Assembly (NCBI GenBank): GCA_044892525.1
Contig: CM097885.1
Span: 26,228,001-26,292,000, forward strand
Length of the DNA: 64,000 nt
Reading direction: 5' to 3'
Origin: Schmidtea polychroa
Taxonomy: Eukaryota
Shown: piece by piece, positions 5,191 to 64,000 of the stretch
Position numbering within the stretch: position 1 is the stretch's first letter
Layout of the letters: each line of letters starts with the position of its first letter
Translations under genes and position numbers: made by a program
Notes under the pieces: model-generated
Database searches by the model: none
What the model saw: the letters and a program-made list of their open reading frames with translations, nothing else
What the model was told of the DNA's origin: nothing

Positions 5191-5329
5191 GAAAAGAACG
5201 ATGATACTGCCCCAGTATATTTCGAAAAAATAGAAAAGATGGTTGACCAAGTTCTGAAGCACAAATGGGACAAGAAAGAATTAATGTCATATTTTTTGGT
5301 CCATTGTATCAAAGACAAGGTCTCGATGG

Positions 5330-5925: not shown

Positions 5926-6149
5926 TTTAATAAAATTAGTCCTCATCAGACAAAATAACGTCATCGATATCGATATCATCTTCTCCAACATAATCTCCAA
6001 ATCTTCTTGATTAAATTCTTCCTCATCTTCTCCAACATTTTCATCAAATTCTTCTCCAACAATTTTTCCATCATTTCCATCAAATCCTTCTCCAACATTT
6101 TCATCAAATTCTTCTCCAACAATTTCTCCAATATTTAATTGACTTAATC

Positions 6150-11870: not shown

Positions 11871-14800
11871 ATGAGAAATACCCCAACCTTCCAGAGACCT
11901 ACTATGGATAATATTCTTAAACTCTTTGCTGGAACACTCGCAAGTTGCTCGCCTAATCCTTTGATTGAACTACCCTCACTTCCATACCGTATATTCTCCT
12001 CACTTCTAAACAATCGCCTCTTGAGCTGGATAAAACTCGGCAACCTACTATCTATCAACCAAAAGGCTATATGTGCACCCGATGAGAAATACCCCAACCT
12101 TCCAGAGACCTACTATGGATAATATTCTTAAACTCTTTGCTGGAACACTCGCAAGTTGCTCGCCTAATCCTTTGATTGAACTACCCTCACTTCCAGAAAC
12201 TCGGCAACCTACTATCTATCAACCAAAAGGCTATATGTGCACCCGATGAGAAATACCCCAACCTTCCAGAGACCTACTATGGATAATATTCTTAAACTCT
12301 TTGCTGGAACACTCGCAAGTTGCTCGCCCAATCCTTTGATTGAACTACCCTCACTTCCATACCGTATATTCTCCTCACTTCTAAACAATCGCCTCTTGAG
12401 CTGGATAAAACTCGGCAACCTACTATCTATCAACCAAAAGGCTATATGTGCACCCGATGAGAAATACCCCAACCTTCCAGAGACCTACTATGGATAATAT
12501 TCTTAAACTCTTTGCTGGAACACTCGCAAGTTGCTCGCCTAATCCTTTGATTGAACTACCCTCACTTCCAGAAACTCGGCAACCTACTATCTATCAACCA
12601 AAAGGCTATATGTGCACCCGATGAGAAATACCCCAACCTTCCAGAGACCTACTATGGATAATATTCTTAAACTCTTTGCTGGAACACTCGCAAGTTGCTC
12701 GCCTAATCCTTTGATTGAACTACCCTCACTTCCATACCGTATATTCTCCTCACTTCTAAACAATCGCCTCTTGAGCTGGATAAAACTCGGCAACCTACTA
12801 TCTATCAACCAAAAGGCTATATGTGCACCCGATGAGAAATACCCCAACCTTCCAGAGACCTACTATGGATAATATTCTTAAACTCTTTGCTGGAACACTC
12901 GCAAGTTGCTCGCCTAATCCTTTGATTGAACTACCCTCACTTCCAGAAACTCGGCAACCTACTATCTATCAACCAAAAGGCTATATGTGCACCCGATGAG
13001 AAATACCCCAACCTTCCAGAGACCTACTATGGATAATATTCTTAAACTCTTTGCTGGAACACTCGCAAGTTGCTCGCCCAATCCTTTGATTGAACTACCC
13101 TCACTTCCATACCGTATATTCTCCTCACTTCTAAACAATCGCCTCTTGAGCTGGATAAAACTCGGCAACCTACTATCTATCAACCAAAAGGCTATATGTG
13201 CACCCGATGAGAAATACCCCAACCTTCCAGAGACCTACTATGGATAATATTCTTAAACTCTTTGCTGGAACACTCGCAAGTTGCTCGCCTAATCCTTTGA
13301 TTGAACTACCCTCACTTCCAGAAACTCGGCAACCTACTATCTATCAACCAAAAGGCTATATGTGCACCCGATGAGAAATACCCCAACCTTCCAGAGACCT
13401 ACTATGGATAATATTCTTAAACTCTTTGCTGGAACACTCGCAAGTTGCTCGCCTAATCCTTTGATTGAACTACCCTCACTTCCATACCGTATATTCTCCT
13501 CACTTCTAAACAATCGCCTCTTGAGCTGGATAAAACTCGGCAACCTACTATCTATCAACCAAAAGGCTATATGTGCACCCGATGAGAAATACCCCAACCT
13601 TCCAGAGACCTACTATGGATAATATTCTTAAACTCTTTGCTGGAACACTCGCAAGTTGCTCGCCTAATCCTTTGATTGAACTACCCTCACTTCCATACCG
13701 TATATTCTCCTCACTTCTAAACAATCGCCTCTTGAGCTGGATAAAACTCGGCAACCTACTATCTATCAACCAAAAGGCTATATGTGCACCCGATGAGAAA
13801 TACCCCAACCTTCCAGAGACCTACTATGGATAATATTCTTAAACTCTTTGCCGGAACACTCGCAAGTTGCTCGCCTAATCCTTTGATTGAACTACCCTCA
13901 CTTCCCGAAACTCTCTCTTGCGACCCTTTCGACATCGATGAAATTAAGGCAATCTTCAAGCAACTCAGCAATACGGCCCCAGGTATAGATGGCATCTCTC
14001 TATCTGACTGGAGAATTCTATCACCTGACTTTGAATTCCTTCTATCCTTGTTCAACAACCTACTACGCACAACTACTTGCCCTATGTCCTGGAAAACCTT
14101 TCGCTCCAAACTAATTCTAAAAGCTGGAAAGACCGAGACTAGCCATGAAGCTAGCGCCTGGAGACCCATATCTATCATGAACACCTCATACCGTATATTC
14201 TCCTCACTTCTAAACAATCGCCTCTTGAGCTGGATAAAACTCGGCAACCTACTATCTATCAACCAAAAGGCTATATGTGCACCCGATGAGAAATACCCCA
14301 ACCTTCCAGAGACCTACTATGGATAATATTCTTAAACTCTTTGCTGGAACACTCGCAAGTTGCTCGCCTAATCCTTTGATTGAACTACCCTCACTTCCAG
14401 AAACTCGGCAACCTACTATCTATCAACCAAAAGGCTATATGTGCACCCGATGAGAAATACCCCAACCTTCCAGAGACCTACTATGGATAATATTCTTAAA
14501 CTCTTTGCTGGAACACTCGCAAGTTGCTCGCCTAATCCTTTGATTGAACTACCCTCACTTCCAGAAACTCGGCAACCTACTATCTATCAACCAAAAGGCT
14601 ATATGTGCACCCGATGAGAAATACCCCAACCTTCCAGAGACCTACTATGGATAATATTCTTAAACTCTTTGCTGGAACACTCGCAAGTTGCTCGCCTAAT
14701 CCTTTGATTGAACTACCCTCACTTCCATACCGTATATTCTCCTCACTTCTAAACAATCGCCTCTTGAGCTGGATAAAACTCGGCAACCTACTATCTATCA

Positions 14801-15696
14801 ACCAAAAGGCTATATGTGCACCCGATGAGAAATACCCCAACCTTCCAGAGACCTACTATGGATAATATTCTTAAACTCTTTGCTGGAACACTCGCAAGTT
14901 GCTCGCCTAATCCTTTGATTGAACTACCCTCACTTCCATACCGTATATTCTCCTCACTTCTAAACAATCGCCTCTTGAGCTGGATAAAACTCGGCAACCT
15001 ACTATCTATCAACCAAAAGGCTATATGTGCACCCGATGAGAAATACCCCAACCTTCCAGAGACCTACTATGGATAATATTCTTAAACTCTTTGCCGGAAC
15101 ACTCGCAAGTTGCTCGCCTAATCCTTTGATTGAACTACCCTCACTTCCCGAAACTCTCTCTTGCGACCCTTTCGACATCGATGAAATTAAGGCAATCTTC
15201 AAGCAACTCAGCAATACGGCCCCAGGTATAGATGGCATCTCTCTATCTGACTGGAGAATTCTATCACCTGACTTTGAATTCCTTCTATCCTTGTTTAACA
15301 ACCTACTACGCACAACTACTTGCCCTATGTCCTGGAAAACCTTTCGCTCCAAACTAATTCTAAAAGCTGGAAAGACCGAGACTAGCCATGAAGCTAGCGC
15401 CTGGAGACCCATATCTATCATGAACACCTCATACCGTATATTCTCCTCACTTCTAAACAATCGCCTCTTGAGCTGGATAAAACTCGGCAACCTACTATCT
15501 ATCAACCAAAAGGCTATATGTGCACCCGATGAGAAATACCCCAACCTTCCAGAGACCTACTATGGATAATATTCTTAAACTCTTTGCTGGAACACTCGCA
15601 AGTTGCTCGCCTAATCCTTTGATTGAACTACCCTCACTTCCAGAAACTCGGCAACCTACTATCTATCAACCAAAAGGCTATATGTGCACCCGATGA
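11380..15696 (+). repeat. Higher-order tandem array built from RT coding sequence (493, 211 and 164 bp units)
   Basis: 18 units each starting tgagaaatacccc; order L,(M,S)x4,M,M,L,S,S,M,M,L,S; the ORF track shows 375, 211 and 1243 bp periods. Confidence 0.97.
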
Positions 15697-15739
15697 GTTG
15701 ATTTCACGTATAAGGTAAGGCACAACATTGAGGAGACTT

Positions 15740-17173
15740 GAAAATGCCTTAACTGATACCAAAACAATTCTAGCCTCCTATCTAGAAAACTAACTTGAAA
15801 ATGCCTTAACTGATACCAAAACAATTCTAGCCTCCTATCTGCACCCTGCTCAAAAACTCAATGCCTACAAAATTTTCATACATTCTCGCCTTACCTATAT
15901 CTACCGCAACTGCGAAATTCACCACAATATTCTCGACTCCGAAAGAAACCTTAAAAATAATGCAGGTATACCCCATAGAGGCGCCACCCAAAGACTAAAA
16001 TCTATAATCAAAAATGCCATTGGTGATAAAATTTGCGAGCTCAATAACAATTTCCTATACGCATCCATCAAACTTGGGGGACTGGGGTTAACATCCCTCA
16101 TTGATGAATACCTTATCCAGGGAATTGTCCACCTCATACGTGCCCTCAACTAAACTGACACTGATTTTCGCAACCTCGCCCTATCCGAACTCAGTCAAGC
16201 CAGAGGAAATGGCAACATCAACTCTGCAATCTCCTGGTTAAATGGCAACTCCACTAAAAACTTTCCATCTAAATCTCTCTTCTCGAAATTCAGGAAATCA
16301 TCCATAAGACTACGACTCAAATATGGCATCTCCACTAAAATAGTCTTCCTCAAAAATTCCTACCAATTAGAAATTAAATACAAAGACCGAATTAATTACT
16401 TCACATCCTCTAACCTTAAAGACACCTCATCCGAAATACACTCTATTATTAGCCTCATTTATGCTGATAGATGGTCCGAAATGAAATGCCAAGGACATAT
16501 AGTCAAAAGCATTGGTAGCAGTAGCATTGCTAGTTTCTTCTTTAAAACGGACATCCTAACTGACCCGCAATTTATCTTCCTGATCCGAGCACGCAACAAC
16601 ATCCTAAAATTAAACTATACGCCCCGTCGAATTAAATCCAAGAAATCTACCCTATGTAGGCATTGCCACGCCCATCCTGAAACACAGGCACACATATTTA
16701 ACCACTGCCCTGCTAAATCCAATGCCCGCCGAAACAAACATAGAAATGTCCTCCAAGCTGTCTCCGACTTCCTCCTCGAGCATAAATACGATATAGACAT
16801 CGAACAAACCCCAATGGGGATCAACACCACCCTCATCCCCGACCTCCTTATCAAAACCCCGCGGAACAAATTGATTCATATCCTGGACATAAAGGTCCCT
16901 TACGAAAGTGAAAAAAACTTTGAACAAGCTAGGAATAATAATTTTGAGAAATACAAACACCTAGCAATCGACATAGGTCATGCACACAACTGCAAGACCT
17001 CTCTACTTACCCTCGTTATTGATACACTCGGTACCTGGGACAGGAAGAATGACAAAGACCTCAGAATAATTGATCTGAGTAGAGCAGAAATTAAGGCTCT
17101 AGCAAAAAGAGCCTGTACAGCAGCCGTAGTCAGCAGCTACCTCATATATAGGGAACACATATACAAAGACTAA
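15740..17173 (+). pseudogene. RT thumb, CCHC zinc knuckle and restriction-like endonuclease (RLE)
   Basis: LHPAQKLNAY, KLGGLG, CRHC...ETQAHIFNHC, RRNKH, PDLL...DIKVPYE, KYKHL, GTW; ORF 16481..17173 is open, upstream part has a stop. Confidence 0.92.
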
Positions 17174-20517: not shown

Positions 20518-22017
20518 ATGAATAACCAAAATAATATTTTAAGAGCAATGTTGGCTGGAGAAAACAGTAAATTATTTTTTCTTTTATTTATTATTATTTT
20601 ATTCACATTTAGCTAATTTATGGTACGAAGTTACCGAAGCAGAAAATAATATGTAAGATGCCCCAATTATTATTAGTGACGATGATGATGGTAAATTTAA
20701 TTATTTATTAAATTATTAAAATTTAGATGAAATTAATCTTATGGAAAATAATGAACTTATTATTATAACCGATGATGAAGAAATCATTATTAGTGATGAC
20801 AGTGGTAAGTTTTATATTATTTATCAAATATATTTAAAAAGGAACTTCAGATAATGAAACAAATGTAGTTACAAATGAAGGAGTAGTTAATGATATCGTC
20901 GATGATGCCCCCACATATATTGAAAATGTCGTCAATGAATCTGATGCCTCCACCGCTATTGGGGATGCCCCTATTGGATGAATTAGAAGATGATTCTGAT
21001 TCCGATATGGAATGGAAATGTTAGGGGGGGTAGGGGTATGTCTTTGTCCCAGAGGGCCCGCTATCCCTCTACTACAATATAATGGATCATATACTGCTCA
21101 ATTTTCAAAAACTTTGGTGAAACATCATTGACTTTGTCGAAAAATACTGATTTTAGAGACACATATATTCAAGATTTCGATGATGCACCCACATATATTG
21201 GAAATGTCGTCAATGAATCTGATGCCTCCACATTTATTGCAAATGCAGTCGATGATTCTGATGCCCCCATCGCTATTGGGGATGCCCCTATTGGATGAAT
21301 TAGAAGATGATTCTGATTCCGATATGGAATGGAAATGTTAGGGGGGGTAGGGGTATGTCTTTGTCCCAGAGGGCCCGCTATCCCTCTACTACAATATAAT
21401 GGATCATATACTGCTCAATTTTCAAAAACTTTGGTGAAACATCATTGACTTTGTCGAAAAATACTGATTTTAGAGACATATATTCAAGATTTCGATGATG
21501 CCCCCACATATATTGGAAATGTCGTCAATGAATCTGATGCCTCCACATTTATTGCAAATGCAGTCGATGATTCTGATGCCCCACCGCTATTGGGGATGCC
21601 CCTATGCGGGATGAATTAGAAGATGATTCTGATTATGGAATGGATCTGTGTTGATATAAATGTATATTGAAATATAGAAAGTTGTTATGGAGTAAGTTGT
21701 TTTTTATACTGTTTAATTTATTAAAGTAGTTCTGTTCAGGTCAATAAATGCGGTAAACAGATATTGGGAAATGGATTTATAGTTAGTGTAAGAAATTTAT
21801 TTTATTTTTGTATATTATTTTTAAAAAAACATTTAGAGTTTAATGTGGACTTAGATGACGAATCCAATAATGATCTTTTAAATACGGGAAATGCTCTCAC
21901 TTGTATTGAGGAGGTACCAAAGGAGAAATCAAATATGGAAAATGCCCTCAGTTCTAATGAGGATGATAATGTCCTCTCTGAGGATGATTCTGATTCCGAC
22001 ATGGAATCACAATGTAA
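20518..22017 (+). pseudogene. Multi-exon acidic poly-SIM-like gene, copy A (rearranged)
   Basis: MNNQNNILRAMLAGEN|NLWYEVTE...*DAPIIISDDDD|...LIIITDDEEIIISDDS|...DSDSDMESQ with GT-AG micro-introns; one stop and internal duplications. Confidence 0.65.
21021..21073. mobile_element. Maverick-type terminus remnant (duplicated at 21338-21390)
   Basis: G-run then tatgt...gggcccgctatccctctact; the reverse complement starts AGTAGAGGG and has a C-run, like the termini at 38292 and 48719. Confidence 0.55.
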
Positions 22018-23106
22018 GTATTTATTTATTTATTTATATATATATATTTTTTAAATTTAAAAATTTTCTTAATCACTTTTTTAACATTTGCATAAAACTT
22101 TTATGTTATTATGTTATTGAAATTATGAATATAATGAAGAAAATGATGATGAAATTATGATGAAAATGAAGAAAATTATGAAAATGTTATAATGAAGTTA
22201 TTATGACGAAAATGAAGAAAATTTTAATTAATGGAATCACCAGATTAAATAATAAAATTGACATATTTAGGAAGCGGATGGGGGGGGGTAGGTAAAATCA
22301 AAGAGATAGATTTTATCCTAACTAAATATACTCACATGAATAGGCTAGTATAAAATTTAATTTATTTTATTTATTATATTGAATTTATTTGTAAAGGCTG
22401 ACAGCTAGAGGTTTCAAAATTCCAATTAAATTTATTTATTTTTCTTAATTACTTGTATTCTTTATAAACCGTTTCTGGAGACTCATTTATTTTATATCAT
22501 CCTATATTCGTATTTGTCCCAGTAATTACCATCCGCCCATTCCTGTTTCACTCGAAATATGTCAATTTTTGACAACCTAAACATATCAAATATATCAATT
22601 ACAAATCTTGTTAGGTAATTTTTAAATGAGAGTTTTAATAAAATATTTATTCAGAATGTCGAATACCCAAATGGTTCAAAGGTTTCCATGCGATATTGAT
22701 GATAATATGGAGATAAATTTAATGAATCTCAAAGCCCAATATCAGGATCAAGTCAATTATCAGCAGCCAATCATATCATCAGCAACGCCAATGATTAGGG
22801 GGACACGGTCGCATCAGCCAATAAAATAAACTTGGTGTCCGTGAAGAGCATCCCAACAAATATTGATCTGGAATCCAATTGCAGGTGTCCAAAATCAATT
22901 TGACAAAGGAAACGATTACGGAGATTTCTTGGAGATGAACTTTCAAGACCGGGAGGTAAATAGTCGTTCAATATATCGGCACTCTGTAAAAAGATATGAA
23001 TTGGGTGATGTGAATCGGCACGCACTATTGCTGATTTCCAAACAATTTGGTGAAAATAGCAGCTGTGAAGACGACGAGGAGGATGAAGAGGTACTGTAAC
23101 CTGCAC

Positions 23107-23875
23107 ATGGCCAATGGCAGTGGCATGGAAGCTTATATTGAATCAATTCATGGGAGTCCAGTAGCAATCGCATCTTCATCAAGCTATTTAGTAAGCCCAC
23201 CGGGACCAAGGGATAATCTCATCCGAGTTGTCATGGTGACTGATGAAGGCAACAACCTAGTCTGGCGAATTGATATATTCAAGGCAACAGACCAACCAAC
23301 AAAATGGGTAAAAATTCAATTCACTGTCGTCATCCAGTTCGAGAAAGAAGGGGAAATTAGAGATAATTTTTTCTCTTATAGCAACGAAGTTTTTACAGAA
23401 AATTTGTTTAATGAATGGAATCACCAGATTAAATAATAAAATAGAAAAATTTACGTATTTAGGGAGCTGATGGCGGGTAGTTAAGATCAAAGAGATAGAT
23501 ACACATTTGAATAGGCTAGCTGGTCATAGTTATATCCCCACACCATCAGCATTAATCCCAAAAAGAGCTATAGTAAACGTCAAAAACAACGACGATATGT
23601 GCTTTACATATAGCATTTTAGCACTGTTAAAACGCGATGTTATACGTCGTCATAGAAATCGTGTTACGACATATGAAAATTATTTAGGTGAACTGAATTT
23701 TGACCCTATAAGTGATTGTCCCATGAAATTATGTGATATCCCCAAATTCGAGAGGAAAAATAAGGAATTAAATTTGGCAATTAATGTATTAACCTATAGG
23801 AAAAAACCAGCTAAGCCTATAGAAAACGATGACAGCTTCTATATTCACCATCATCCTCATTTAGATATTATGCAA
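23107..23875 (+). pseudogene. Maverick pPolB N-terminal region
   Basis: GS*W...AGHSYIPTP...KRAIVNVKNNDDMCFTYSILA...IPKFERKN...INV, typical of the Polinton PolB N-terminus; contains stops. Confidence 0.85.
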
Positions 23876-39159: not shown

Positions 39160-39813
39160 TTACATGTATATAGTATGATATTCATTAATCAGTGTTGAAC
39201 AGGCTTGACACTTGCGAACATTCTTCTCGTGACACTTAGAACAAACAATTACGTGACCACATGGTAAATACAAAACCGAAACTCGATTTTCTTTACAAAT
39301 TGAACAAGTTAAATACCTTTTCTTAACATCGTTCAGTTTTTTCGTTAGCTTATTTTCAATCAAATCAGCTTTTGCTATCCATTCATAAATCAATCCACTA
39401 TATCCCGGTTTCAACCTTAAATACATACAACTCCAAAAGTATTCATTCAGTGAATCGTTGTTTACCGATATTTTTTCTAAGTACATTAAATAACTAGATA
39501 ACTTTAAAATGGATTTATCATAATTAAATAAATCAATCAAATATTCAATAGAGGAATGTTTGAAAATCTTTAAAATATTTATGATTTGCTTATCACTGTA
39601 AGTATCATGATTATTTATAAAATCTTCAACTGTGTTGTTAAAAAATTTCAATGAACGCTTATCTTCGGAATAGGTTGGACTTAATTTTTCCTTATTTCTA
39701 GTAGGACTTCCTTGCTATAAATGACACATATATAAAAAATATTGACAAAATAATAAAGTTACCAAATGTGTTTTATGATTTACACATTCAACAGTTTTAT
39801 TTGTAGAAATCAT
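39160..39813 (-). CDS. Spliced C3HC4 RING-finger protein (IAP/MDM2-type C-terminal RING), 201 aa
   Basis: Exon 39813-39763, 48-nt GT-AG intron, exon 39714-39160 in frame; CSIC...LYLPCGHVIVCSKC...CQAC; no BIR domain seen. Confidence 0.85.
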
Positions 39814-41261: not shown

Positions 41262-41681
41262 TTAAAATAGTTGTGAAAGTCTAGCAGACATAATTTTCCA
41301 AATTGGAGAATACACATCATTATTATCAACTTTATATCCTTGGATTGCTATTGTTATATACCAATTTTCGTTTTCTTTGAAGCTGATTTCATCAAAGGAA
41401 TTATAAAATCTTGCATATCGGTTGTTGAAAAATGCATGTTGATTACAAGATAGATTCGTATTCAACCGTTTGAAAACCTCATCAATAGATTTAACATCTA
41501 ACATTGAAAGCGTGCCGGATAAGAATTGAAATTTAGTCGGAATTAGCTTGATCGGTGACACCAATTTCATATTGATTTCTTCTTTTAAAAAATACATTTT
41601 ATAGTTGTGGAACATTTGAACAGGTTGTACAAGTTCTGGAACAACTTTTGACTTTTCAGTGCTTGAAATTTTCTTTGTCAT
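41262..41681 (-). CDS. Maverick accessory ORF, 139 aa (possible OB-fold/SSB-like)
   Basis: Intact ATG ORF with an upstream CCAAT box; beta-rich C-terminus ITIAIQGYKV...PIWKI; function speculative. Confidence 0.5.
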   Translation of the reverse strand: MTKKISSTEKSKVVPELVQPVQMFHNYKMYFLKEEINMKLVSPIKLIPTKFQFLSGTLSMLDVKSIDEVFKRLNTNLSCNQHAFFNNRYARFYNSFDEISFKENENWYITIAIQGYKVDNNDVYSPIWKIMSARLSQLF

Positions 41682-42438: not shown

Positions 42439-42903
42439 TTAATTAAGTGATAATAAAAAATCTAAAAATTCATTTCCTTCAATTATTGATTTAATTTCAG
42501 ATATGATATTATCAACTATACATTTGTAATCAATATTTTTTATTCCAAGAATTACTATCTTACCGCTAGCGAATATATTTACACACATAGGGTTATATTT
42601 TATATATCTCAAAGCTGGAAATAATTCTGGTTCATAAAAGCATGGTATTAATTTAGCCAATTCATTTAAATTACAAGAAAAACCTATATCAGAAGTTACG
42701 GTTATCGATTGTATTTCTAAATCATAAACATTATATTCACTAGCTTTGATTATTTCCTTACACCCCATAACTCTACATTTACCAGTTTTGAAATATATTA
42801 TTGGATATTTTTTACTTCTATTGATGAGTTGTTGTGGTTTCCCCATTGGAAATACCATTTTTGATACATCAGCTTTTGCCCTGTAATTTATATTTGAAAG
42901 CAT
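42439..42903 (-). CDS. TATA-binding protein (TBP)-like protein, copy 1
   Basis: SNIN, YFKTGKCRVMGCK, EIQSITVTSD, YEPELFPAL and IFASGKIVILGIK match TBP core repeats; intact and intronless. Confidence 0.88.
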   Translation of the reverse strand: MLSNINYRAKADVSKMVFPMGKPQQLINRSKKYPIIYFKTGKCRVMGCKEIIKASEYNVYDLEIQSITVTSDIGFSCNLNELAKLIPCFYEPELFPALRYIKYNPMCVNIFASGKIVILGIKNIDYKCIVDNIISEIKSIIEGNEFLDFLLSLN

Positions 42904-43014: not shown

Positions 43015-43017
<3 letters not shown>

Positions 43018-46000
43018 GGTGGGTCGAATGTTAATAAATTTTGAGTTCAAGAAAGGAAACATGGTTAAAAAGTTGTATTTTGGTATAGAAAAATCGAATC
43101 AAACCATTTTACTTAGATTTATAGACATTTACTGCTCCCAACTTTTCTCCGAAAATGCAGTTCAACATAAGTGTGAAAACAATGTAATTTGGCTAGTGTC
43201 GGAATGTGTTTTGCGCCTTTGTTCATATTTAGATGTAGCTTTCTTAAGAGCTTATAAGTATATTATTTACTCTCTTGGGCTGAGATAGTATATTCTGTGT
43301 CCTCATCCCACATTGAAATATATCCTGACAACGTCAGTGATTAGGAAGGGCCAAATTTGAATTATCCTTTTCAAAGACAAAAATCAACTTTCGAAATTAT
43401 TTTTTATTAAAAACATCCAGCCAAAAGTTTAGAAATGTATTAGCGAGGGCATAAAAAGAAGTCACATGAAATCAGCTTTGCTTTGCACCTTGGGCAATTC
43501 CTTCCTTGATTTTTTACACAGTAGTACCATACCATGTCTGGACTTGTGACCAAACACTTTGCAACTGGCAGAAGAAACATCTTTGATGGCTCTTTCAACG
43601 GCTTGAGAATGACAGGGAAATTGTTCTAATGTAATTTTCTTATTCATCTTCAATTCATGATCCAATATATGAGATAAAAGAGGGGGAGGCGTCAAATTAC
43701 ATTTTGTCCAGTCAATCATGTCAACATATGATGTAGCAGACGACTGAAGAAAGACAGTATTCTTGTCCATAGTGCGAATCACTTCGGAAGGGAGAAAATT
43801 TTGTCTTGCAGTTATGATTTTTTCTGTTGTAAGCTTTCTGATTTCTTCATCATCATCACCAACAGCAGCTAGGAGTATATTTTCTGGATGTGAGAAGTAA
43901 TTGTTGTTCTGAATGACAGGAAAGATGATTTCTTGGTCTGATGGATCCAAATCCTGCAGAAGTTGGAGCATATAAAAAATATTTCTTGCACCATCTTGGC
44001 ATGACGAGTGAGTCTTTATATAAAACCATGACGGTCCATAGAAATTGACAATAAATTTCACTATTCGCATGAGAGGTTCAGATGGAGCAGTTTCGGACAT
44101 ATATAGTCGCAGAATTCTATTAGCTTTCGTTAGCCAGCGACTGTGATTCAAATTTCCTGGTTGTGCCATTTGTAGAAAAGGGACATCCTTGTTGTTGTGG
44201 TACCCTTTCTGGACTGCCAAGCATACTCTGAGGAAATACAATTGATCAGTGTTCAATTCTTTCTTGACATTTTCACTAATATCTACGACCTTTCCAGGAA
44301 GGGACATAAAGGCTACTACGGGCTTGTCTTTTGGATCAAAATCAAGAACGCTTCCTATTTCACCACATGACGTTTTTGGACCTTTTGTTTCTCCACCATC
44401 GACGACTGAAAAATACTTCCTGAATGGCAATTCATTTGCATGCAACAAGCATATCAGCCATTTTAGAGGTCGCCCTAGGCTTTTTTCGAGTCTTCTGATT
44501 ATTCCATTATTTTTTCCGGTGTTTGTATTGGTTCCATCGCACACAATTGCTTGAAGGGTCAGTGAGGACTGCGTGCTAACGATGATTGACATGATTTCTT
44601 TGCCAATATCCACAGCTTTACTACTTTGAGGTACAACATGATCGATATATGTATCCCCTGGAAAGGCGACAATCACATAATGCTCCTCTTTTAGGATCCT
44701 TCTATGAAGTAAGGTGGAATCTTGTTTCCCGTCGAAACCGAGGCAAATCAAGTTTTTCGCTTCTGCTGAATGCTGTTCAATTTCTCTCTCCCTCCAGTAC
44801 TTTCTCTGACGCCGTAATTTTGCGGGATCGATGATTGTTTGAGAGGATAACAGTTCCATATCTTTCAGAAAAGCGTTTACTAGCAAACACGTGTCTCTGT
44901 TGCTCACACCACATCTGTCAACAGCTTTACTTAATTCAGGATAATGTCTTCTATTTTGAAATTCATCACATTCTTCTACGCTTGACTCTGAGCTTTCTGT
45001 TGAATTGTCTAACTTATCTTTACTTTCATCACTAGCGGCTTCACTCTCCGTGTCACTTCTTGAGGTCGGATGTGTTCATTATTTCATTTTTCATTTGTTT
45101 TCCTTTTCCAGTAGGGCTGCTTTTCGTTTGATTTCTCTTCAATTTTGAGGTTTCCTGTCTGTCCGTATTTCCGATTTTCATGTTTCTGGTAGTTTGTTGG
45201 TCAATCCAGAACTCCCACTCTAAGGTAGGAATTTTCAAGGCCAATCGGCATGTACACTGACTTCTTCCACGAGCACCATCATTAAAATATTTGCAGCAAC
45301 ATATGTCAAACAATTTGGAAAACGAGCTTAACTTATCTTGAAATTTGGCAGATGACCTCTTGCATTCTGGATACTTCTCTAATTCACGCACTTTTGATAT
45401 TAGTCGCTTGACACGAACCACAATACTACTGAACTCAACAGTTGGGATACTTGCCTTCATATAAATTTCCTTCACCTTATTTGCGAGAAGAGTTGCTTGT
45501 TCGTTAAAGCCAGTATGAAATTGCGTACATTTCTCATTGTAACAGTAATCACGAAACACATCTTCACAAGTAGGTAATTGGTTTCTGGGTAGTTCACAAG
45601 TTTGACCAAACAGACAATGACGTGATTTACTTCTTGTTTTGCGAAATTGCTTATTTCTCTGTCCCTTCATAACTGCTCTTCTGTACTCAGCTCTGGCAAA
45701 ATAAAAGTGAATCATCAAGTTAACTTTTTTAATTAGGTCCAGCAAACACTTGACATCCAATCGAAACAAATTAAATTATCTGAGTTTAGACTGACTAGTT
45801 GTATCCATGTGGATTATGTGTTGACTTTAGTGTGTGTGTTAGTATTGTTCAGAAGAAATTGTCTTTGTGAGTGCTTGTGTGAAGGTGCTTCCGTGAATTA
45901 ACCTCTCTATACATGCACGAGTTAGCTCGGACTTGTGAATAGAGCATGTCAAAAATGGTCTTTCTGCAAGCGTGTGACTGCTTGCAGGATGAATTTACAA

Positions 46001-46169
46001 TGGCACGTGTGCGAGCATTTTTACTGGGATAGTACTAATACATACAAACAAAAGTTGGGACCTGTAGACCCTTTTAAACAGCAGTCTTTTGCAGGGATAT
46101 TTCATTTTCTAGCATAAGCACAACTTTTTAGGCATGTTTGGAGAAAAAAAAAATTTTCAACCCACCCTA
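43015..46169 (-). mobile_element. hATm-type DNA transposon, near full length
   Basis: TIR TAGGGTGGGTCGAA / TTCAACCCACCCTA (1 mismatch); inserted in a (TA)n tract giving an ATATATAT flank on both sides. Confidence 0.9.
43462..45769 (-). pseudogene. hATm transposase (apparently one frameshift near 45060-45110)
   Basis: LFDICCCK, DRCGVSNR, GFDGKQD, CDGTNTNTG, CLLHANELPFR, HSRWLT, HPEN, PCHSQAVER. Confidence 0.88.
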
Positions 46170-46250
46170 ATATATATATATAGTTATTTTAAAAAGGAGT
46201 TCATTTAAATTATCAATATAAACAATAATTATATAGTTTAAATTTAAAAA

Positions 46251-46560
46251 ATGGAATTACGAAATGATGCAGTATACCAAATCGTTGGTCCGAGTGGTAG
46301 CGGGAAAACATTATTTGTTTGTAAATTACTAAAATCTAATTTGTTCAAAACAAAATTCAACAATATTTATTGACATAGAGGCGCCGATGAAGAACATGGA
46401 TTGACGCAATCAAGTTTCTGTCAGTTGAAAAACATGAAAATAGTAAAGGGTTTTGATAAAAACCGGTCAAGTCGTTTGAAGAGAGATGATGTCATCATTA
46501 TCGATGATTTGTATCAAGAAGCCAATAAAGAAAAGGATTTTAATAATTTATTCACAAAAA
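46251..46560 (+). pseudogene. Maverick packaging ATPase (A32/FtsK-like), truncated, copy 1
   Basis: MELRNDAVYQIVGPSGSGKT (Walker A), IIIDD (Walker B), NLFTK; TGA at 46371. Confidence 0.88.
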
Positions 46561-47192
46561 TTTTACTGAATGATACCTTAAATGATTTTAATATACCTAT
46601 TTCTAAAGTAAATCGACAGCTCAGACCAACAACATGTATGGATGACCACAAATTGTTAATTTATTTCCAGTGTCACGTCTCTCAAAAATACCGTGAGTGT
46701 TTTAACAAAACAGAGCTCAAAGAAACTTTCCAGATAACAACTCCCCTGAATGTTTTGAACAAAAATGATTGAAATTGAGAAAAAATGATTAGATGGCGAT
46801 TAACTTCTGGCCACAACCCTAAATATATAACATGAAAATTAAGATTTTAAATATTGAATTCGTTGTTTTCAGCCTGGAAATATTAACAGAATATTTTTTA
46901 ATTCAAAGAATCTTCATTATAAATTTTTAAATTAAATGAAGGATATATTAAATTTACAATATTATATAAATTATACTATATTTATTAATAAATTTAGAAT
47001 ACATAAATTATAATATTATATAATATTATATAAAATTATACTATATTTTATTGTTTAAATAACTAAATTGTTTAAATATTTTTAAATAACTTTTCTTTCG
47101 TTTTAGTATCCATAAAGTAAGTAAATAAAGAAATTACTAAAATATTTTAATTGTTTTCCTTATTAATGAAGAAAATACAACAACAATCCAAA

Positions 47193-55919: not shown

Positions 55920-56825
55920 TGTTGAGGTCTGTAAATTAAAATTAAAAATTTAAATAAAATTTAGGATAATAATTCAAATGGAAAGTAAGCGAGGAAAAAA
56001 GGCAAATAAAAGCGGGATCGTGTACAGAATCAATAGTAAAGTGTGATGGAAACAGTATTAGAAAATGCAAAAAGCAATTACGAAATGCGAAAAACACTCA
56101 AACGTATGAAAACAGAAAACGTTAATTAATTGGCTAATGGAAAACCCGAGCTAATGGGAAACCCGAGCCAATGGAGAACCCGAGAGATAAAGGAAACCCG
56201 AGCTGGGTAAACAAGAAGAAAGGCAAACAAAAGGAAGATTTGGGCCCATTAGCTTGACACAATGATTAATGGGAAAAGAGTAAGGAGAAGATAGCGCGCG
56301 TAGGAAGACCGGTAGGGCCATTAATTATCTGGATTCGTTGGACCATTATGGATGACAGCCGAAGCAAACACGTAGGAGAAAATGTCAAACAAAAGATTGG
56401 CTCGGCAATAACCATTTGTCATCCTGATTTCGAGGAGTATATAAGCAAAGGGAAAATCAGAGAAAATCGGCATTCTGCCTCAGCTAGGGTTCGAAGAATT
56501 AGACTGTAGAGGAAGTGGTAAACGAATTAGGGAAGTAGGGAAAAAAAGAAATAGAATTAAGAATACGGAAAGGCGAAAAGGGATCAAACCAAACAGAAAC
56601 CGAGGAAAACGAGAGTCAAGAGAACTAAAGGATCAAAAGGTGAATATTGTTTGTTTGCAAAGCATCAACGCCGAGCGGAGAATCGTATAAAACTTTGATT
56701 GGTAATTGTAGCGTGATAATAAATTGTGAACCTGTTGTTTCAATATACGTTGGGTCGTTCATTGTTTTGATTTAAAGAACACAGGAGTCAGAGAGAACCG
56801 ACTTGAAATAATCCAAAACCCAACA
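55920..56825 (+). mobile_element. 3' LTR (906 bp) of a Ty3/Gypsy element
   Basis: TGTTG...CAACA; upstream PPT; TATATAA at about 56438; AATAAA at about 56718. Confidence 0.88.
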
Positions 56826-57253
56826 GTCCTAAAAAATTAAATTACAGTAAATTATGGTTCTAAAAAATTAAATTACAGTAAATTATGGCTCAAATTTTAA
56901 AATTAAGTAATCAATGGTAAAGAATTTTAAATAAGTAAATTAAAGTGATAATTTTTAAATAAAGTAATCAATGGTAAAAATTTTAAAATAAGTAAATTAA
57001 AGTAATAATTTTTATATAAAGTAATCAATGGTAAAAATTTTAAAATAAGTAAATTAAAGTAAGATTTTAAAATTTAATTACAAAATAATAGAAGGTGTTT
57101 GAGAACTGAAATTTTTTAATGAAAATTTTTATGAATAATTTTCAATGGTAATTGTTATGAAATAATTTTTTAAGTTAATTTTTAATGGAAATTTTTATGA
57201 AATATTTTTCAATGATAATTTTAGATGGAAATTTTTAAGATAATTTTTAATGA

Positions 57254-57302
<49 letters not shown>

Positions 57303-57551
57303 TATCGACCAAATACATAAAAATTGAACTAGACACATAAAAATTTACCAAACAAATAACAAATGTAAAGATATAAAATTTATTCATCCAATATTTGCTT
57401 GTAATAAGCTCTTCTTAATTCTGCTAGTAAAATATGAACAACTTCTTTCATCTTATATTCTTGGCAGCATCTACATCTAAACGGACATGATAATTTCATT
57501 GGATCCATACATACTTCACAATCGTCTATGCATTTAAATCTTGATTCTTGT
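56156..57551. repeat. Left arm of a long inverted duplication
   Basis: Reverse complement of 62629-64000; by eye differs only in (AAT)n length. Confidence 0.95.
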
Positions 57552-57664: not shown

Positions 57665-58249
57665 TTAAATTTTCGCACAAGTTAAACTAAGTGTAGGATT
57701 TGATCTTGTTAATTTAATTTGAACACTAACACCTGGTAGTAAATATTTAGGTTGATCAAAGAAATCAAATTGAAGTGGGGAACATAAAGAAAAGGATTTT
57801 GATTTTTCAATCCATGTTTTTCTCGTAAGATCATTGTTAGTATACCCCATTCCACCTAAAGAAGTTCGTTTAGTATTTCCGTCATAATTTATAAGTGTTT
57901 CAATTAATGCTTTGTGGGCAAATCGATCATTTGATCCTTCAACTTTGATTGAATTAAAAATTAATTCAACATCTTAAAAAAGGGTTTGGAAGAAAAAATA
58001 TTTTGGAATTACTTCTGATTCGCCTAAATTCTCACCTAAATTATTAACAACTTTCAATTGAATATATAACAAAGTATCATTCAAATCTAAATATTCAGTC
58101 TGCGATCCGTTTATGTAAAATTGAATCGAAGAAGAACCAGCATATGTAATAGAATTTCTTGGGTATATATCTTGAAATGCTCCATGTTCAATCACTGCTT
58201 GGGGAGAAGGTCTATCAAAAAGACATAATTCTGATTAAGCACTAATCAT
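57665..58249 (-). pseudogene. Maverick major capsid protein (PY/hexon), N-terminal fragment
   Basis: SELCLFDRP.PQ..IE...IQFYING...YLDLNDTLL...TLF...ALIETLINY...KYLLPGV; stops; truncated. Confidence 0.88.
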
Positions 58250-58644
58250 TTTTCAAAGATGGTACCATATCCTTTCATTCTTTTGTTTATATGTTTCTTC
58301 ATAATTTTTCGGCGTTTAAGTATTCCGCCTTTTTGTTCTTTATCATTTTTAAATACATCGGATACTTTATTAATTACTTCTGGTAAATGTTGCATCACAG
58401 CTGGTAATGATTCTTTAATTTCAGAAATTGCATTTGATTTTAAAGCAGGCAAGATATTTGCATTGTTATTTATTACGTCATTAACTGTTTTCATACCAAA
58501 ATTTCCTATTCGTCTAAGAATTGGGAGTGCAAATCTACCTATTGTCTTCAACCAATCGGTTCCATATTGTTTACCAACAAAATATGGTAAATCACCACCC
58601 GATTGGTTACTACTATAAAAATGTATTAAGTCAGGATTAGTCAT
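58246..58644 (-). CDS. Maverick PW-like virion core/membrane-active protein
   Basis: QSGG...FVGKQYG...IGRFALPIL, basic C-terminus; located between penton and hexon. Confidence 0.7.
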   Translation of the reverse strand: MTNPDLIHFYSSNQSGGDLPYFVGKQYGTDWLKTIGRFALPILRRIGNFGMKTVNDVINNNANILPALKSNAISEIKESLPAVMQHLPEVINKVSDVFKNDKEQKGGILKRRKIMKKHINKRMKGYGTIFEK

Positions 58645-59653
58645 TTATTTTACGAAAATGTAATGTCAAGTATGTTTTATCTTCTTTTCCAAAAATATAT
58701 TTTCCACTATCATCTCGTATATTGATTTCTATATTGTTTATATATGAAGACGATACAGGTAAGTACATTGGATTCTTTTCAATTATTTGTACTAAATCAT
58801 CTTTTTTATGTTTTTCCACCCAAATACATTTCAAAAGAGGGACCAATGTATCACCAACAATAATTGGTTCGATAATATTTGTATAGATCATCAATTGTTG
58901 ATTGCGTTGTAATACTTCAGGTTCTTTAAAACCAATAATAAATTTGTCAGTATACGTTTCTTCTAATAATCCTAAACTATTAGGTAAAAATTTACTAAAT
59001 TGAACTTTACTTACATCATCATCCATTAAAATTTTAACGATTTTTCCTTTTTGAATATCAACAGATTTAAATGGACGAGGATAAAAGGTTGATAGTTGAT
59101 CATTTATTTGTGAAAGATCTGTAATGATATTTTCTTCGAATGTATCAGTAAACTCAACATCGTAATAATATTGTATAGTTAATCGTATTGTATCAAACTT
59201 TATTTTTCGATTATTTGGAGGAATAGTGATTTTGTTCATTGTTTCTTTAAAATTTATTTCTTTTTCTGAAAATCCCAATTTTTGTGCTTCTTTAATACAA
59301 TCGAATTCTACTTTAAAAGGAAAATATTTACAATTAATGTTCAATGTATTTCCATCAATATATATTAAATAAAATGGAGAGTCGTGACTGATTGTATATT
59401 CATTTTTTTCTTGGTTAAAGTAAAAGTATTCATAACTTGTATGTAATACACTTTTACTATATTTGACATTTGAATTGTTGTAAAAAGGAAAATAATTATA
59501 CACAAAGGTAAAGTCCATGAGAGCTACTTCCCATTCACCACCCAAGTAAATTGGATTTTGAAATTCGACATTAAATTTACCTGCTTCATTATTTGGATGA
59601 GTCTGAGGACAACTATTAGAAGGTAAATTCACATAAAAATCTTTTTTAATCAT
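58637..59653 (-). CDS. Maverick minor capsid protein (PX/penton), copy 1
   Basis: FYVNLPSNS...PNN...GEWEVAL...IYTNIIEP..VGD..VPLL...YLPV...IEINIRD...LTLHFRK. Confidence 0.9.
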   Translation of the reverse strand: MIKKDFYVNLPSNSCPQTHPNNEAGKFNVEFQNPIYLGGEWEVALMDFTFVYNYFPFYNNSNVKYSKSVLHTSYEYFYFNQEKNEYTISHDSPFYLIYIDGNTLNINCKYFPFKVEFDCIKEAQKLGFSEKEINFKETMNKITIPPNNRKIKFDTIRLTIQYYYDVEFTDTFEENIITDLSQINDQLSTFYPRPFKSVDIQKGKIVKILMDDDVSKVQFSKFLPNSLGLLEETYTDKFIIGFKEPEVLQRNQQLMIYTNIIEPIIVGDTLVPLLKCIWVEKHKKDDLVQIIEKNPMYLPVSSSYINNIEINIRDDSGKYIFGKEDKTYLTLHFRKIND

Positions 59654-60668
59654 TTATTTTACGAAAATGTAATGTCAAGTGTGTTTTTGTATCTCTACTA
59701 ACTTTTATTAATTTTCCACTATCATCTCGTATATTGATTTCAATGTTGTTTATAGAAGAATTAGAAATTGGTAGATACATTGGATTCTTCATTTCTAATT
59801 GCACAATTTCTCCTTGTTCATATTTCTTTATCCAAATAGATTTCAATAACGGGACTCTTACATCTCCAACAGTCAATGGTTCGATAATATTTGAGTAAAT
59901 AAACATTTGTTGATGATGATTAAATAATTTTGGAATTTTTGTTCCAATAATTTCTTTCTCTGTAAATGTTTGTTTCTTTAATCCCAATGTTTTTGTTAAA
60001 TTTTTATCAAAGAATATTGATGAAATGTTATCAGCAAGACTTATTTTAACAAATTCATTATTTTGTATTTTTAAATCTTTAAAGGGAGATGAATTAATTG
60101 TCATTAACTGACCATGTATTTCAGATAAAGTATTGATGTATAATTCATCTTCGAAATAATGTTCAAATTTTGTTTTTTCAACAACGCTTATAATTATACC
60201 AAATTGATCAATTGTTTAATCTTCTGTAAATTTTGGTAATTTAATTCGAAAATGATCACTATCACTAATAACCGATACTGATTTTAATCCAAATTTGATA
60301 GCATGCTCAAAATCTGGAAACGTTATTTTAAATGGAACATGTGGACAAACAACAACCAAATTCTCATATCTTTCAATGAACAGTGCTTCAGGAGTATTTT
60401 TAGGATTTATTACTTCAAAGGTTCGATTTGAAATATTTATTCTAAAATATTTAATTTCTTCATCCATCTTTACTTTTTCATATTGTATCAATGAATTACT
60501 GTAATAGGGAAAAGTATTATACACAAAGGTAAAGTTCATGAGAGCTACTTCCTATTCACCATCCAAGTAAATAGGATTTTGAAATTCGACATTAAATTTA
60601 CTAGCTTCATTATCAGGGAAAATAAGAGGACAACTATTAGAAGGTAAAATAATATAAAAATCTTTCAT
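59646..60668 (-). pseudogene. Maverick minor capsid protein, copy 2
   Basis: Same N- and C-terminal motifs (MKDFYIILPSNS, GE*EVAL, LTLHFRKIND); stops. Confidence 0.88.
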
Positions 60669-60673
60669 AATAT

Positions 60674-61535
60674 TTATTTAATCAATTGATTTTCGGATAT
60701 CCAAGATGGAGTTTCATATCCATGCCATTTAACATAGTATTGTTTATATTTACCATCTTTTTTGGTTTTTAAAATCTTTTGAATTCTAAATATTGTAGGA
60801 GCAGGAATTACTTGGAGTTCTTGTTCATAGAATTTACCACTGATTGGTTTGTTTTCATGATCAACTATCACATACATGACAGGATTCTGTTTTGTATCGA
60901 TTTTAAAAATTTGATATACTTCATCACTCCAATTATTATCAAAGTTTTTGATGAATGGTGAAGAATTGATTTTACTAATTCTTACATGATCACCAACTTT
61001 GTATTTCGGTTTATTGATTTTTTCTAACTTTGTTTGATTTTTAGTAAAATCTGCAGGTGTTTGTCCTTTTAATCCTCTGTGTGGTGAATGATTGTAACTG
61101 AAAATAATTTTTGGCAAAACATTTATCCAAGTTTTATTACCTTGATATACAAAATATTTTTTCAAACGTTCTCTCAAAGTTCGATTAAATCGTTCTACAT
61201 GAGTAGCTTTTAACTGAGAAAATACTGAGTAGTGGTTTATTCCTTTGATAACCTCTTTAACTTTGCTGTTATAAAATTCTTTACCTAAATCATATATTTA
61301 AAAATTAATTAATTAAATTTAATTACCTAAATCCGTTTGTAAATTAATAGATTTACCATCTGCAAACATTTCTTTTATCGCATCAGCCATTTCATTTGCA
61401 GATTTAGTTTTTGTAGGAACAGCACGAGCATATCTATTAAAAACGTCTATACAAGTCAGAATATATTTGTACCCCTTGTTAATTTTTGAATAAGGTATCA
61501 TTTCCATCAAATCCATTTGCCATACATAAAATAAT
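60674..61535 (-). pseudogene. Maverick retroviral-like DDE integrase with C-terminal chromodomain; 42-nt intron; 5' deleted
   Basis: WQMDL, CIDVF, QTDL|GKEFYN, VERFNRTLRE, YNHSPH, YYVKWHGY..PSWI; intron 61285-61326. Confidence 0.92.
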
Positions 61536-61853
61536 CCGCAATGTCTACTGATTTTTGTAAATAAATTATTAAAATCTTTTTCTTTATTTGCTTCCTGGTA
61601 CAGATCATCGATAATAATAACATCACCTTAATCTAGATGACCAATTTTTATCAAATCCTTTAATTATTGTCATTTTTAATTTACAGAAACTGTTTTGAGT
61701 CAATCCATGTTCTTCATCTGCACCTCGATGCCAATATATTTTATTAAATTTAGATTTAAACATGTTTGATTGTAATAAATTACATACAAATAAAGTTTTC
61801 CCGCTTCCACTAGGTCCTACAATTTGATATACTGCGTCATTTCTTAATTCCAT
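61536..61853 (-). pseudogene. Maverick packaging ATPase, truncated, copy 2
   Basis: GPSGSGKT; frameshift before IIIDD; FTKISRH then joined directly to integrase sequence by deletion. Confidence 0.88.
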
Positions 61854-61903
61854 TTTTTAATTAAATTATTTTATTTAATTTGTTTATAATTACAATAATT
61901 AGA

Positions 61904-62389
61904 ATGATCAGCAACATTAATTATAGAGGAAGATGTGCAGTTAATGGAATGAAGTTCCAATCAGGAAAACCTCAACATGTTGTGGATAGAAGTGGAAAAT
62001 ATCCAATTTTATTCTTCAAGAGCGGGAAATGTAGGATAATGGGATGTAAGAAACCATTACAGGAAGGCGATCTCAAATATCAGATTCAAGATTTACAAAT
62101 CCAATCAATTACATTAACGTTAGATATGGTTACATGTATTGATTTAAATGCATTGTCAAGGAAAACCGATAGTTACTACGAGCCTGAAATATTTCCAGCT
62201 TTACGTATTCTCCAGTATAACCCCCTATGTGTAAATGTTTTTTCAAGCGGGAAAGTTGTTATATTAGGGATTAAAACATTTGATTATTTTAATCAAATTC
62301 AAGAAATTCAGAAATTCATTATCATGCAGAAATCATTAACTATAAATATCACAACAAATGAAGAAATATTGGAATATTTATTAAGTTAA
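61904..62389 (+). CDS. TBP-like protein, copy 2
   Basis: MISNINYR, FFKSGKCRIMGCK, QIQSIT, YEPEIFPAL, VFSSGKVVILGIK; intact. Confidence 0.88.
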   Translation: MISNINYRGRCAVNGMKFQSGKPQHVVDRSGKYPILFFKSGKCRIMGCKKPLQEGDLKYQIQDLQIQSITLTLDMVTCIDLNALSRKTDSYYEPEIFPALRILQYNPLCVNVFSSGKVVILGIKTFDYFNQIQEIQKFIIMQKSLTINITTNEEILEYLLS

Positions 62390-62452: not shown

Positions 62453-62800
62453 ATGGATGACGATAAGCAGGCTTACATATTCCAGACTATATTAACAAAG
62501 ATGGAAGAATTGTTCCCGAATATAAAGAATAGACTTTCGTATTGTGCTCCGGAATTATTAGCTTATAGAATCAAGCAATTAACGGGGATCAATATAGAAG
62601 AACTTCTACGAAGACATTACGAGTCTGTACAAGAATCAAGATTTAAATGCATAGACGATTGTGAAGTATGTATGGATCCAATGAAATTATCATGTCCGTT
62701 TAGATGTAGATGCTGCCAAGAATATAAGATGAAAGAAGTTGTTCATATTTTACTAGCAGAATTAAGAAGAGCTTATTACAAGCAAATATTGGATGAATAA
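62453..62800 (+). CDS. Cys-rich protein (CxxC and CxFxCxCC), 115 aa
   Basis: Intact ORF with CIDDCEVC...CPFRCRCC directly after the TBP-like gene. Confidence 0.7.
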   Translation: MDDDKQAYIFQTILTKMEELFPNIKNRLSYCAPELLAYRIKQLTGINIEELLRRHYESVQESRFKCIDDCEVCMDPMKLSCPFRCRCCQEYKMKEVVHILLAELRRAYYKQILDE

Positions 62801-64000
62801 ATTTTATATCTTTACATTTGTTATTTGTTTGGTAAATTTTTATGTGTCTAGTTCAATTTTTATGTATTTGGTCGATATATTATTATTATTATTATTATTA
62901 TTTCATTAAAAATTATCTTAAAAATTTCCATCTAAAATTATCATTGAAAAATATTTCATAAAAATTTCCATTAAAAATTAACTTAAAAAATTATTTCATA
63001 ACAATTACCATTGAAAATTATTCATAAAAATTTTCATTAAAAAATTTCAGTTCTCAAACACCTTCTATTATTTTGTAATTAAATTTTAAAATCTTACTTT
63101 AATTTACTTATTTTAAAATTTTTACCATTGATTACTTTATATAAAAATTATTACTTTAATTTACTTATTTTAAAATTTTTACCATTGATTACTTTATTTA
63201 AAAATTATCACTTTAATTTACTTATTTAAAATTCTTTACCATTGATTACTTAATTTTAAAATTTGAGCCATAATTTACTGTAATTTAATTTTTTAGAACC
63301 ATAATTTACTGTAATTTAATTTTTTAGGACTGTTGGGTTTTGGATTATTTCAAGTCGGTTCTCTCTGACTCCTGTGTTCTTTAAATCAAAACAATGAACG
63401 ACCCAACGTATATTGAAACAACAGGTTCACAATTTATTATCACGCTACAATTACCAATCAAAGTTTTATACGATTCTCCGCTCGGCGTTGATGCTTTGCA
63501 AACAAACAATATTCACCTTTTGATCCTTTAGTTCTCTTGACTCTCGTTTTCCTCGGTTTCTGTTTGGTTTGATCCCTTTTCGCCTTTCCGTATTCTTAAT
63601 TCTATTTCTTTTTTTCCCTACTTCCCTAATTCGTTTACCACTTCCTCTACAGTCTAATTCTTCGAACCCTAGCTGAGGCAGAATGCCGATTTTCTCTGAT
63701 TTTCCCTTTGCTTATATACTCCTCGAAATCAGGATGACAAATGGTTATTGCCGAGCCAATCTTTTGTTTGACATTTTCTCCTACGTGTTTGCTTCGGCTG
63801 TCATCCATAATGGTCCAACGAATCCAGATAATTAATGGCCCTACCGGTCTTCCTACGCGCGCTATCTTCTCCTTACTCTTTTCCCATTAATCATTGTGTC
63901 AAGCTAATGGGCCCAAATCTTCCTTTTGTTTGCCTTTCTTCTTGTTTACCCAGCTCGGGTTTCCTTTATCTCTCGGGTTCTCCATTGGCTCGGGTTTCCC
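62629..64000. repeat. Right arm of the inverted duplication (includes an LTR copy at 63331-64000, minus strand)
   Basis: Reverse complement of 56156-57551; runs off the end of the window. Confidence 0.95.

Follow-up and report, generated by a model that had tools for sequence, protein, structure and literature searches.

ORF24 of KSHV, a viral protein resembling the TATA-binding protein (TBP) that acts at the late box TATTWAA with host Pol II (PMC12529657), is the closest functional precedent for the protein described in the present study, with the difference that its function has been demonstrated, whereas that of our protein is one that we infer. In the part of that work available to us, ORF24 is described as a multidomain member of a six-factor complex that lacks the glutamates contacting TFIIB and binds Pol II directly, and its DNA face as more polar than that of cellular TBP (PMC12529657). 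The element protein is by comparison a bare TBP core of 154-161 aa in which the glutamates are retained, and EBV BcRF1 gave only a weak fold match with it (E 7.8e-3). The TBP fold is also encoded by Nucleocytoviricota, which our model matched in Foldseek with E-values from 7.5e-8, and with which it shares an N-lobe regulator surface that is not conserved; the accessible sections of the source indicate that the first TFIIB glutamate of giant-virus TBPs is about 40% conserved and that a viral TFIIB is usually present (PMC7221094). Poxvirus VITF-3 is described, in the portion of the report that was accessible, as a TBP/TFIIB ring operating with a viral TFIIB and the virus's own polymerase (PMC12917281).

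Polintons/Mavericks (adintoviruses, MELD viruses) share with the present elements a protein-primed PolB, an integrase, an A32 ATPase, a mu-like gene, and long inverted ends, with a protease match in relatives. The transcription factor otherwise reported for Polintons, in the accessible portions of the literature, is VLTF3, and TBP was not found in the accessible portions of Krupovic et al. 2024 (PMC11161782), two 2026 preprints, and a coral Polinton preprint. The initial annotation of this DNA did not know TBP as a standard Maverick gene, and this claim of novelty stands only in part: the figure legend of Starrett et al. (2021) names TBP among MELD virus genes, but the text of that paper available to us offers the label alone, with no TBP clade, structure, or promoter analysis, and its figure and supplement may show the same family (PMC8502044). 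Viral TBPs paired with a dedicated late box are already a known kind of system, of which the Polinton version is apparently new, and a clade-wide Polinton TBP with its box is apparently undescribed in the literature searched (subscription journals and Repbase lay outside it).

The window analyzed in the present study, a stretch of 64,000 nucleotides from Schmidtea polychroa, harbors two TBP genes, copy 1 (42439..42903, minus strand, 154 aa, subfamily 1) and copy 2 (61904..62389, plus strand, 161 aa, subfamily 2). The proposal that two intact ORFs with TBP motifs occur here was borne out, both being open from ATG to stop and above the cut-off of the Pfam TBP family PF00352 (E 7.4e-15 and 4.1e-15; 55 and 55.8 bits against 22.9), and the visual estimate of "roughly half identical" copies corresponds to a measured identity of 51%. 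The alignment-based model of the window protein reached a pLDDT of 96 and a pTM of 0.84, and the structures closest to it were all TBPs (Foldseek E 2.5e-9). Its residues 1-145 were aligned with residues 66-240 of yeast TBP at a Z of 12.6 and an rmsd of 2.4-2.6 Å, while the top 24 structure entries gave Z 12-12.6 over 139-144 residues (rmsd 2.4-2.9 Å) and the next unrelated fold Z 6.2. The ORFs are genuine and not artefacts, and the element protein is predicted to adopt the two-lobed saddle fold of TBP, in agreement with the identity suspected at the outset. With a probability of roughly 0.7, we regard it as the late-gene TBP of a Polinton/Maverick (adintovirus-like) clade that would employ host TFIIB and Pol II.

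Regarding element 1, which contains copy 1, an A32-type ATPase remnant lies at 46251..46561 on the plus strand, truncated and with an in-frame stop, and with 97% identity in tblastn to a family ATPase that matches Pox_A32; a box of the form YATAAACR is found upstream of its start at 46251 (46217..46224, plus strand). A DNA transposon with short inverted ends (43015..46169), inserted in a TA run, separates TBP copy 1 from this ATPase, and element-1 homology accordingly ends at 42955 and restarts at 46175. The two ORFs of the transposon (220 and 465 aa) matched no Pfam family, and we assume that it is hAT-like; situated in the TBP upstream region, it likely silences copy 1. Also near copy 1 is the conserved orf139 (41262..41681, minus strand, 139 aa), a frequent neighbor of TBP with 20 relatives in metagenome loci, which had no match in Pfam and Atlas searches and a single-sequence model with a pLDDT of only 43. 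A RING-finger ORF is located near this element at 39160-39486.

Element 2 is bounded by a left inverted-repeat arm (56156..57551), 1396 bp in length and 98% identical to 62629-64000, and by a right arm (62629..64000) that extends past the window edge. Its ATPase remnant (61520..61853, minus strand) carries an internal deletion and changes frame near 61626, and the box of this ATPase (61881..61888, minus strand) lies within the 50 bp that separate it from TBP. Using tblastn, we assigned on the same strand an integrase-chromodomain remnant (60692..61558) with a box in its 3' end (60741-60748), two tandem putative minor-capsid genes (58637..60728), the first broken and the second open (338 aa), with boxes at 59747-59754 and 58735-58742, a putative core-protein gene of 132 aa (58246..58644), the 3' end of which holds a box (58284-58291) upstream of the putative capsid gene, and the truncated 5' part of a putative major capsid gene (57665..58249; 61% identity to a 407-aa family protein). 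Based on Maverick motifs and gene order, we tentatively take the tandem minor-capsid genes to be pentons and the 407-aa protein to be the major capsid protein (MCP), and we presume that the 132-aa core gene is PW-like. Downstream of TBP copy 2 is a Cys-rich ORF of 115 aa (orf115; 62453..62800, plus strand) that was found in nine of the ten fetched subfamily-2 loci, and a 360-aa RING-finger ORF (L160:219-1298) lies inside subfamily-2 elements at seven of the ten. Both window copies are deleted derivatives without pPolB. Elsewhere in the window, 4155-7907 and 21075-23875 are other Polinton insertions with polymerase and putative capsid fragments, and a GC-richer stretch contains near-identical 200-400-bp units in tandem (11380-15697) as well as a zf-RVT match (16481-17173).

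The initial annotation placed each TBP copy head-to-head with the packaging ATPase, which is accurate for copy 2, with its gap of 50 bp, and fails for copy 1, where 3.15 kb of transposon lies between the two genes. Its further remark that TBP stays open beside a broken ATPase describes both window copies and cannot be generalized to the genome. In the 781 Mb searched (four large contigs), near-identical copies (96-100% identity) number at least 150 for either TBP ORF, 150 having been scored from about 4,100 candidates per ORF. All 150 scored copies of subfamily 1 were open (97-100% identical), as were 149 of the 150 scored for subfamily 2 in terms of being without a stop (96-100%). The ATPase was open in 26/29 and 25/29 TBP-picked loci of the two subfamilies, and among loci picked by the ATPase, TBP was intact in 13/20 and the ATPase open in 16/20; TBP is not preserved in preference to the ATPase.

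The supposed affiliation of TBP with a Maverick was confirmed from these genomic copies. The gene stood head-to-head with the A32 ATPase in all 20 fetched 10-kb stretches, in 58/58 TBP-picked loci outside the window (1.5-kb flanks), and in 20/20 loci picked by a divergent ATPase, blind to TBP. Beyond the ATPase, the usual order was mu-like, integrase, putative penton, small core gene, and putative major capsid gene, and ORFs of the pPolB cluster were present in 9/20 fetched 10-kb loci. The family ATPase matched Pox_A32 above the cut-off (E 2e-7), the family integrase matched rve (E 1e-6) and Chromo, both under the cut-off, and a linked metagenome relative matched DNA_pol_B_2, a protein-primed family-B polymerase, with E 4e-24. 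Peptidase_C5 was matched in a metagenome relative (E 6.4e-6; a seven-member cluster), while no adenovirus-like protease was seen in the 10-kb stretches fetched from this genome, and the 407-aa and about 340-aa ORFs at the places expected of capsid and penton had no Pfam capsid match. TBP genes of subfamily 2 are frequently arranged in inverted pairs separated by 10-13 kb (e.g., C3:88986925/88998725, C2:2385467/2397740, and C2:165603297/165614363), which suggests fold-back derivatives with the TBP gene inside the inverted arms.

Relatives of this TBP were numerous elsewhere, at least 360 being found by profile search at E 1e-20 or better, and all 120 that were listed are of the short type. From 135 metagenome loci the best 80 were taken, and 41 of these carried a Polinton core gene, as did 22/24 of those of at least 4 kb. 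The position and orientation of TBP varied among metagenome loci, in which it may precede the ATPase on the same strand or follow the capsid gene, so that the linkage is to the element and not to one layout; a universal head-to-head arrangement is ruled out by these gene orders. The TBP profile detected one viral contig only, with a TBP of the giant-virus type, and nothing among prokaryote genomes. TBP is a fixed gene of one Polinton clade.

With respect to protein anatomy, residues were counted in 149 de-duplicated members; the DNA-face positions, N69, and R196 are given in a yeast TBP numbering that we assume to hold from the structural offset (model 1-145 = yeast 66-240). The element protein shares with cellular TBP the saddle, the C-lobe stirrup YEPE(L/I)FP, three intercalating Phe residues, and an N69-equivalent (retained in 131/149), and differs from it in length (about 150 versus 180 residues), the replacement of the first Phe, and the re-coding of about ten DNA-face positions. 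The YEPE.FP stirrup reported for the window TBP was found, and its TFIIB-contact glutamates are near-invariant across members (E91 in 141/149 and E93 in 147/149). Three of four intercalating Phe residues had been thought to be kept, and these proved to be F38 (145/149), F95, and F111 (both 149/149); the first (F99) is Pro in 135/149, with a register uncertain by one residue and no Phe among the common residues; in the window protein, a Pro is found at or beside this position.

On the DNA face, the following replacements were counted among the 149: V71 to N (124), T73 to K/R (111), V122 to R (145), T124 to M (148), N159 to S/T (148), V161 to T/S (147), I194 to R (129), V203 to C (125), and L205 to N (149); R196 is also lost. 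Of 41 cellular TBPs, 37 could be scored at position 205, and 34 of these have L. We believe positions 194, 203, and 205 to be those of the classic altered-specificity yeast mutant. With its near-invariant non-canonical residues, this face has been re-coded and has not decayed. The loss of one Phe and of R196 could mean weaker DNA binding. The N-terminal repeat is short in both model and alignment, as had been noticed: the two N-lobe helical segments comprise 30 and 34 residues in canonical TBP, whereas each has 19 residues in the window protein and a median of 29 in 31 longer members and of 22 in 106 shorter ones, a gradation that points to stepwise erosion of the N-lobe. In the model, helix H1 is absent and H2 is reduced to one turn of four residues (54-57), whereas canonical eukaryotic TBP has an N-lobe H2 with a basic patch. 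Contacts of TFIIA, TAF1, Mot1, and Brf map to this H2, according to the available part of Ravarani et al. 2020 (PMC7221094).

A candidate target for the re-coded face is YATAAACR, which was counted in the 80 nt preceding the first ATG of each gene, duplicate windows having been removed. The box preceded the ATPase in 23 of 27 windows (0.5 expected from shuffles), mu-like in 16/19, the putative MCP and the PLA2 gene each in 10/12, the c25 family in 14/21, and the putative penton in 8/21; it was rare before the polymerase (1/8) and orf139 (2/17) and absent before TBP (0/60). The c25 family, which is not known to be structural, is an unannotated family of 150-170 aa that lies beside TBP in many metagenome loci, sometimes in tandem (e.g., L129:2161-2634). 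Upstream of TBP, the host-type TATAWAWR was instead enriched, without reaching a majority (21/60 versus 6.3 expected). Metagenome loci alone gave the same picture (ATPase 21/25 and TBP 0/58), deep and shallow subclades alike, and 18/20 ATPase-picked loci of this genome had ATAAAC before the ATPase. ATAAAC was found in 8/17 windows of the integrase and was rare before the PW core gene (2/8) and the zinc-finger gene (1/10), and reverse-strand counts were 0-1 for packaging and particle genes. The distance from box to ATG was 32-55 nt for 58 of the 77 boxes, as for a TATA-like element.

Where genes abut, the box is located inside the upstream gene and in two reading frames. Its codons are Tyr/His-Lys at ATPase ends (21/22) and Ile-Asn at PW ends (8/9), compared with Ile-Asn in 10/108 elsewhere, and since codon choice is thereby fixed by the box in two frames, the constraint appears to act at the DNA level. 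TATAAAC is one base off the canonical TATA box. In our reading of the geometry, the C at box position 7 is presumably covered by the N-lobe, which is where the Phe is missing and Arg has replaced V122. A host TBP has been crystallized on such a TATA variant, as judged from the title of PDB entry 1qn3.

As a control we used another Polinton class, likewise abundant in this genome, which encodes a polymerase, an integrase-PLA2, a double jelly-roll capsid, and an A32 ATPase. In its stretches, the best TBP profile match had an E of 0.12, barring one match in an adjacent TBP-class element, and YATAAACR was present in 0/51 upstream windows (one lineage, near-identical copies included), with ATAAAC lacking the leading pyrimidine in 6/51. 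Box density per 10 kb on the two strands was 3/3, 1/0, and 2/1, with no strand bias, as opposed to ten TBP-class loci, in which one strand had 7-14 and the other 0-1. A TBP-less member of the same class as our elements was also sought: viral contigs contained no relative of the ATPase and putative capsid queries, an ATPase motif scan returned 18 stretches of which none was a Polinton ATPase, a capsid motif scan returned 0, and the phage collection had no match; as no such member was found, the box and TBP may have been inherited together without acting as a pair. The control class (L229, L230, and L232) has its integrase fused to a PLA2-like domain, and its genes often start right after an A-rich "TAAAATG"-like context, a possible other promoter or start signal.

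Considering these results, Pol II redirection to viral promoters, one of the two functions first proposed, received indirect support from the box, the control class, and the re-coded DNA face, while the other, a decoy of host TBP, was weakened. We consider it unlikely that the box is read by host TBP, a paralogue, or another element protein, and that element TBP is a decoy tying up TFIIB or blocking host TATA promoters. The near-invariance of the TFIIB glutamates in a protein that has lost one Phe, R196, and N-lobe helices would fit such a role, as would a box so close to canonical TATA in a host with at least seven TBP-like loci, several of them divergent paralogues; however, a TFIIB sponge would need no near-invariant new residues on its DNA face, and the box skips the TBP gene itself and is missing from a Polinton class that lacks TBP but has the same host factors at its disposal.

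Returning to the late-gene TBP, from the observed fold, linkage, conservation, and box we infer the following course. Host machinery would transcribe the TBP gene early, from an ordinary TATA promoter; element TBP would then bind YATAAACR in the minor groove, and its acidic stirrup would recruit host TFIIB and hence Pol II. Recruitment of host TFIIB is proposed because the element encodes no recognizable TFIIB or polymerase with which to replace these, TFIIB families having 0 matches among 29 neighbor cluster representatives and large singletons. Without most of the N-lobe helix surface, the protein may escape TFIIA, TAF1, Mot1/BTAF1, and Brf, and the outcome would be an early-to-late switch from one 150-residue protein, by which packaging and particle genes are turned on. 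The broader proposal, that staged transcription is clade-wide and performed by the smallest known orthogonal TBP (145-165 residues), with a saddle that reads YATAAACR, uses host TFIIB, and has progressively shed its regulator surface, is one that we favor by a narrow measure. Contigs of three possibly-RNA runs covered parts of element 2 and are silent on starts and level.

The possibility that element TBP reads the box only with an element-encoded partner (e.g., the 139-aa, c25, or zinc-finger protein), and not with host TFIIB alone, in the manner of the six-factor complex of herpesviruses or the TBP/TFIIB pair of poxviruses, is in our view improbable. In many of 81 loci TBP is flanked by conserved ORFs without assigned function, among them 20 members of orf139 and 25 of c25, and characterized viral TBPs require viral partners, as indicated by the accessible parts of the respective reports (PMC12529657; PMC12917281; PMC7221094). 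Nevertheless, there is no universal neighbor, orf139, c25, and orf115 occurring in different subsets, none of the 29 neighbor proteins matches a TFIIB family, and the host-type glutamates are retained here, in contrast to their conservation of about 40% in the TBPs of giant viruses equipped with a TFIIB of their own (PMC7221094, available part).

Concerning its origin, 271 sequences were thinned at 70% identity, which left 205. After removal of a row with a frameshift, a partial exon of the host, and half of the element rows taken from databases, a quick IQ-TREE run of 150 rows placed 101 element TBPs apart from 49 TBPs of archaeal, eukaryotic, host, and giant-virus origin with an SH-aLRT of 99. 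The single giant-virus TBP sits on the cellular side, and five truncated element proteins that had been labeled cellular by rule sit on the element side. With its long branches and no bootstrap, the tree rules out a recent host retrocopy and names no donor. Among six subfamilies in this genome, three close pairs had dN of 0.05-0.06 and dS of 0.16-0.26, and the window pair dN of 0.35 and dS of 2.7, the latter near saturation; the resulting dN/dS of about 0.13-0.4 argues for purifying selection on element TBP. That TBP is a captured host retrocopy riding passively, or a domesticated copy kept by the host, is highly improbable, and a processed pseudogene and host domestication were both ruled out by the tree, selection, and linkage: the gene is intronless, as are some host TBP paralogues, and both window ORFs are open beside broken ATPases, but it does not group with host TBPs, its dN/dS is far below 1, hundreds of diverse relatives lie in Polinton contexts, and it is kept no better than the ATPase across copies.

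Whether animal Polintons are true viruses with a regulated cycle is a long-open question, which a factor and its box make directly testable. If the late-gene TBP operates as proposed, "transposons" would possess a genuine early/late viral cycle with no helper virus required, and the protein would be a natural altered-specificity TBP, minimal and altered at nearly all base-reading positions, and as such useful to transcription biochemistry. It would also represent a third viral solution to late transcription, in which host TFIIB is kept and DNA specificity alone is changed, in contrast to the large herpesvirus TBP mimic that bypasses TFIIB and to giant viruses that supply their own. Since candidate elements number in the thousands in the host, many boxes could be served in trans by a single intact copy that is expressed. 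Planarian Polintons are described as piRNA targets that are de-silenced during differentiation, in the accessible part of the source (PMC8532177).

The host genome has at least seven TBP-like loci (L182-L189), of which L184, L187, and L189 are intronless full two-lobe frames and L185 nearly so; the six that were placed in the tree were all on the cellular side. Besides an intron-containing TFIIB, the host also has clustered, divergent, intronless TFIIB-like genes with open frames of 301-310 aa, represented by L234:1075-1977 and 12 similar matches at C3:38.2-39.1 Mb and C1:23.8-24.2 Mb.
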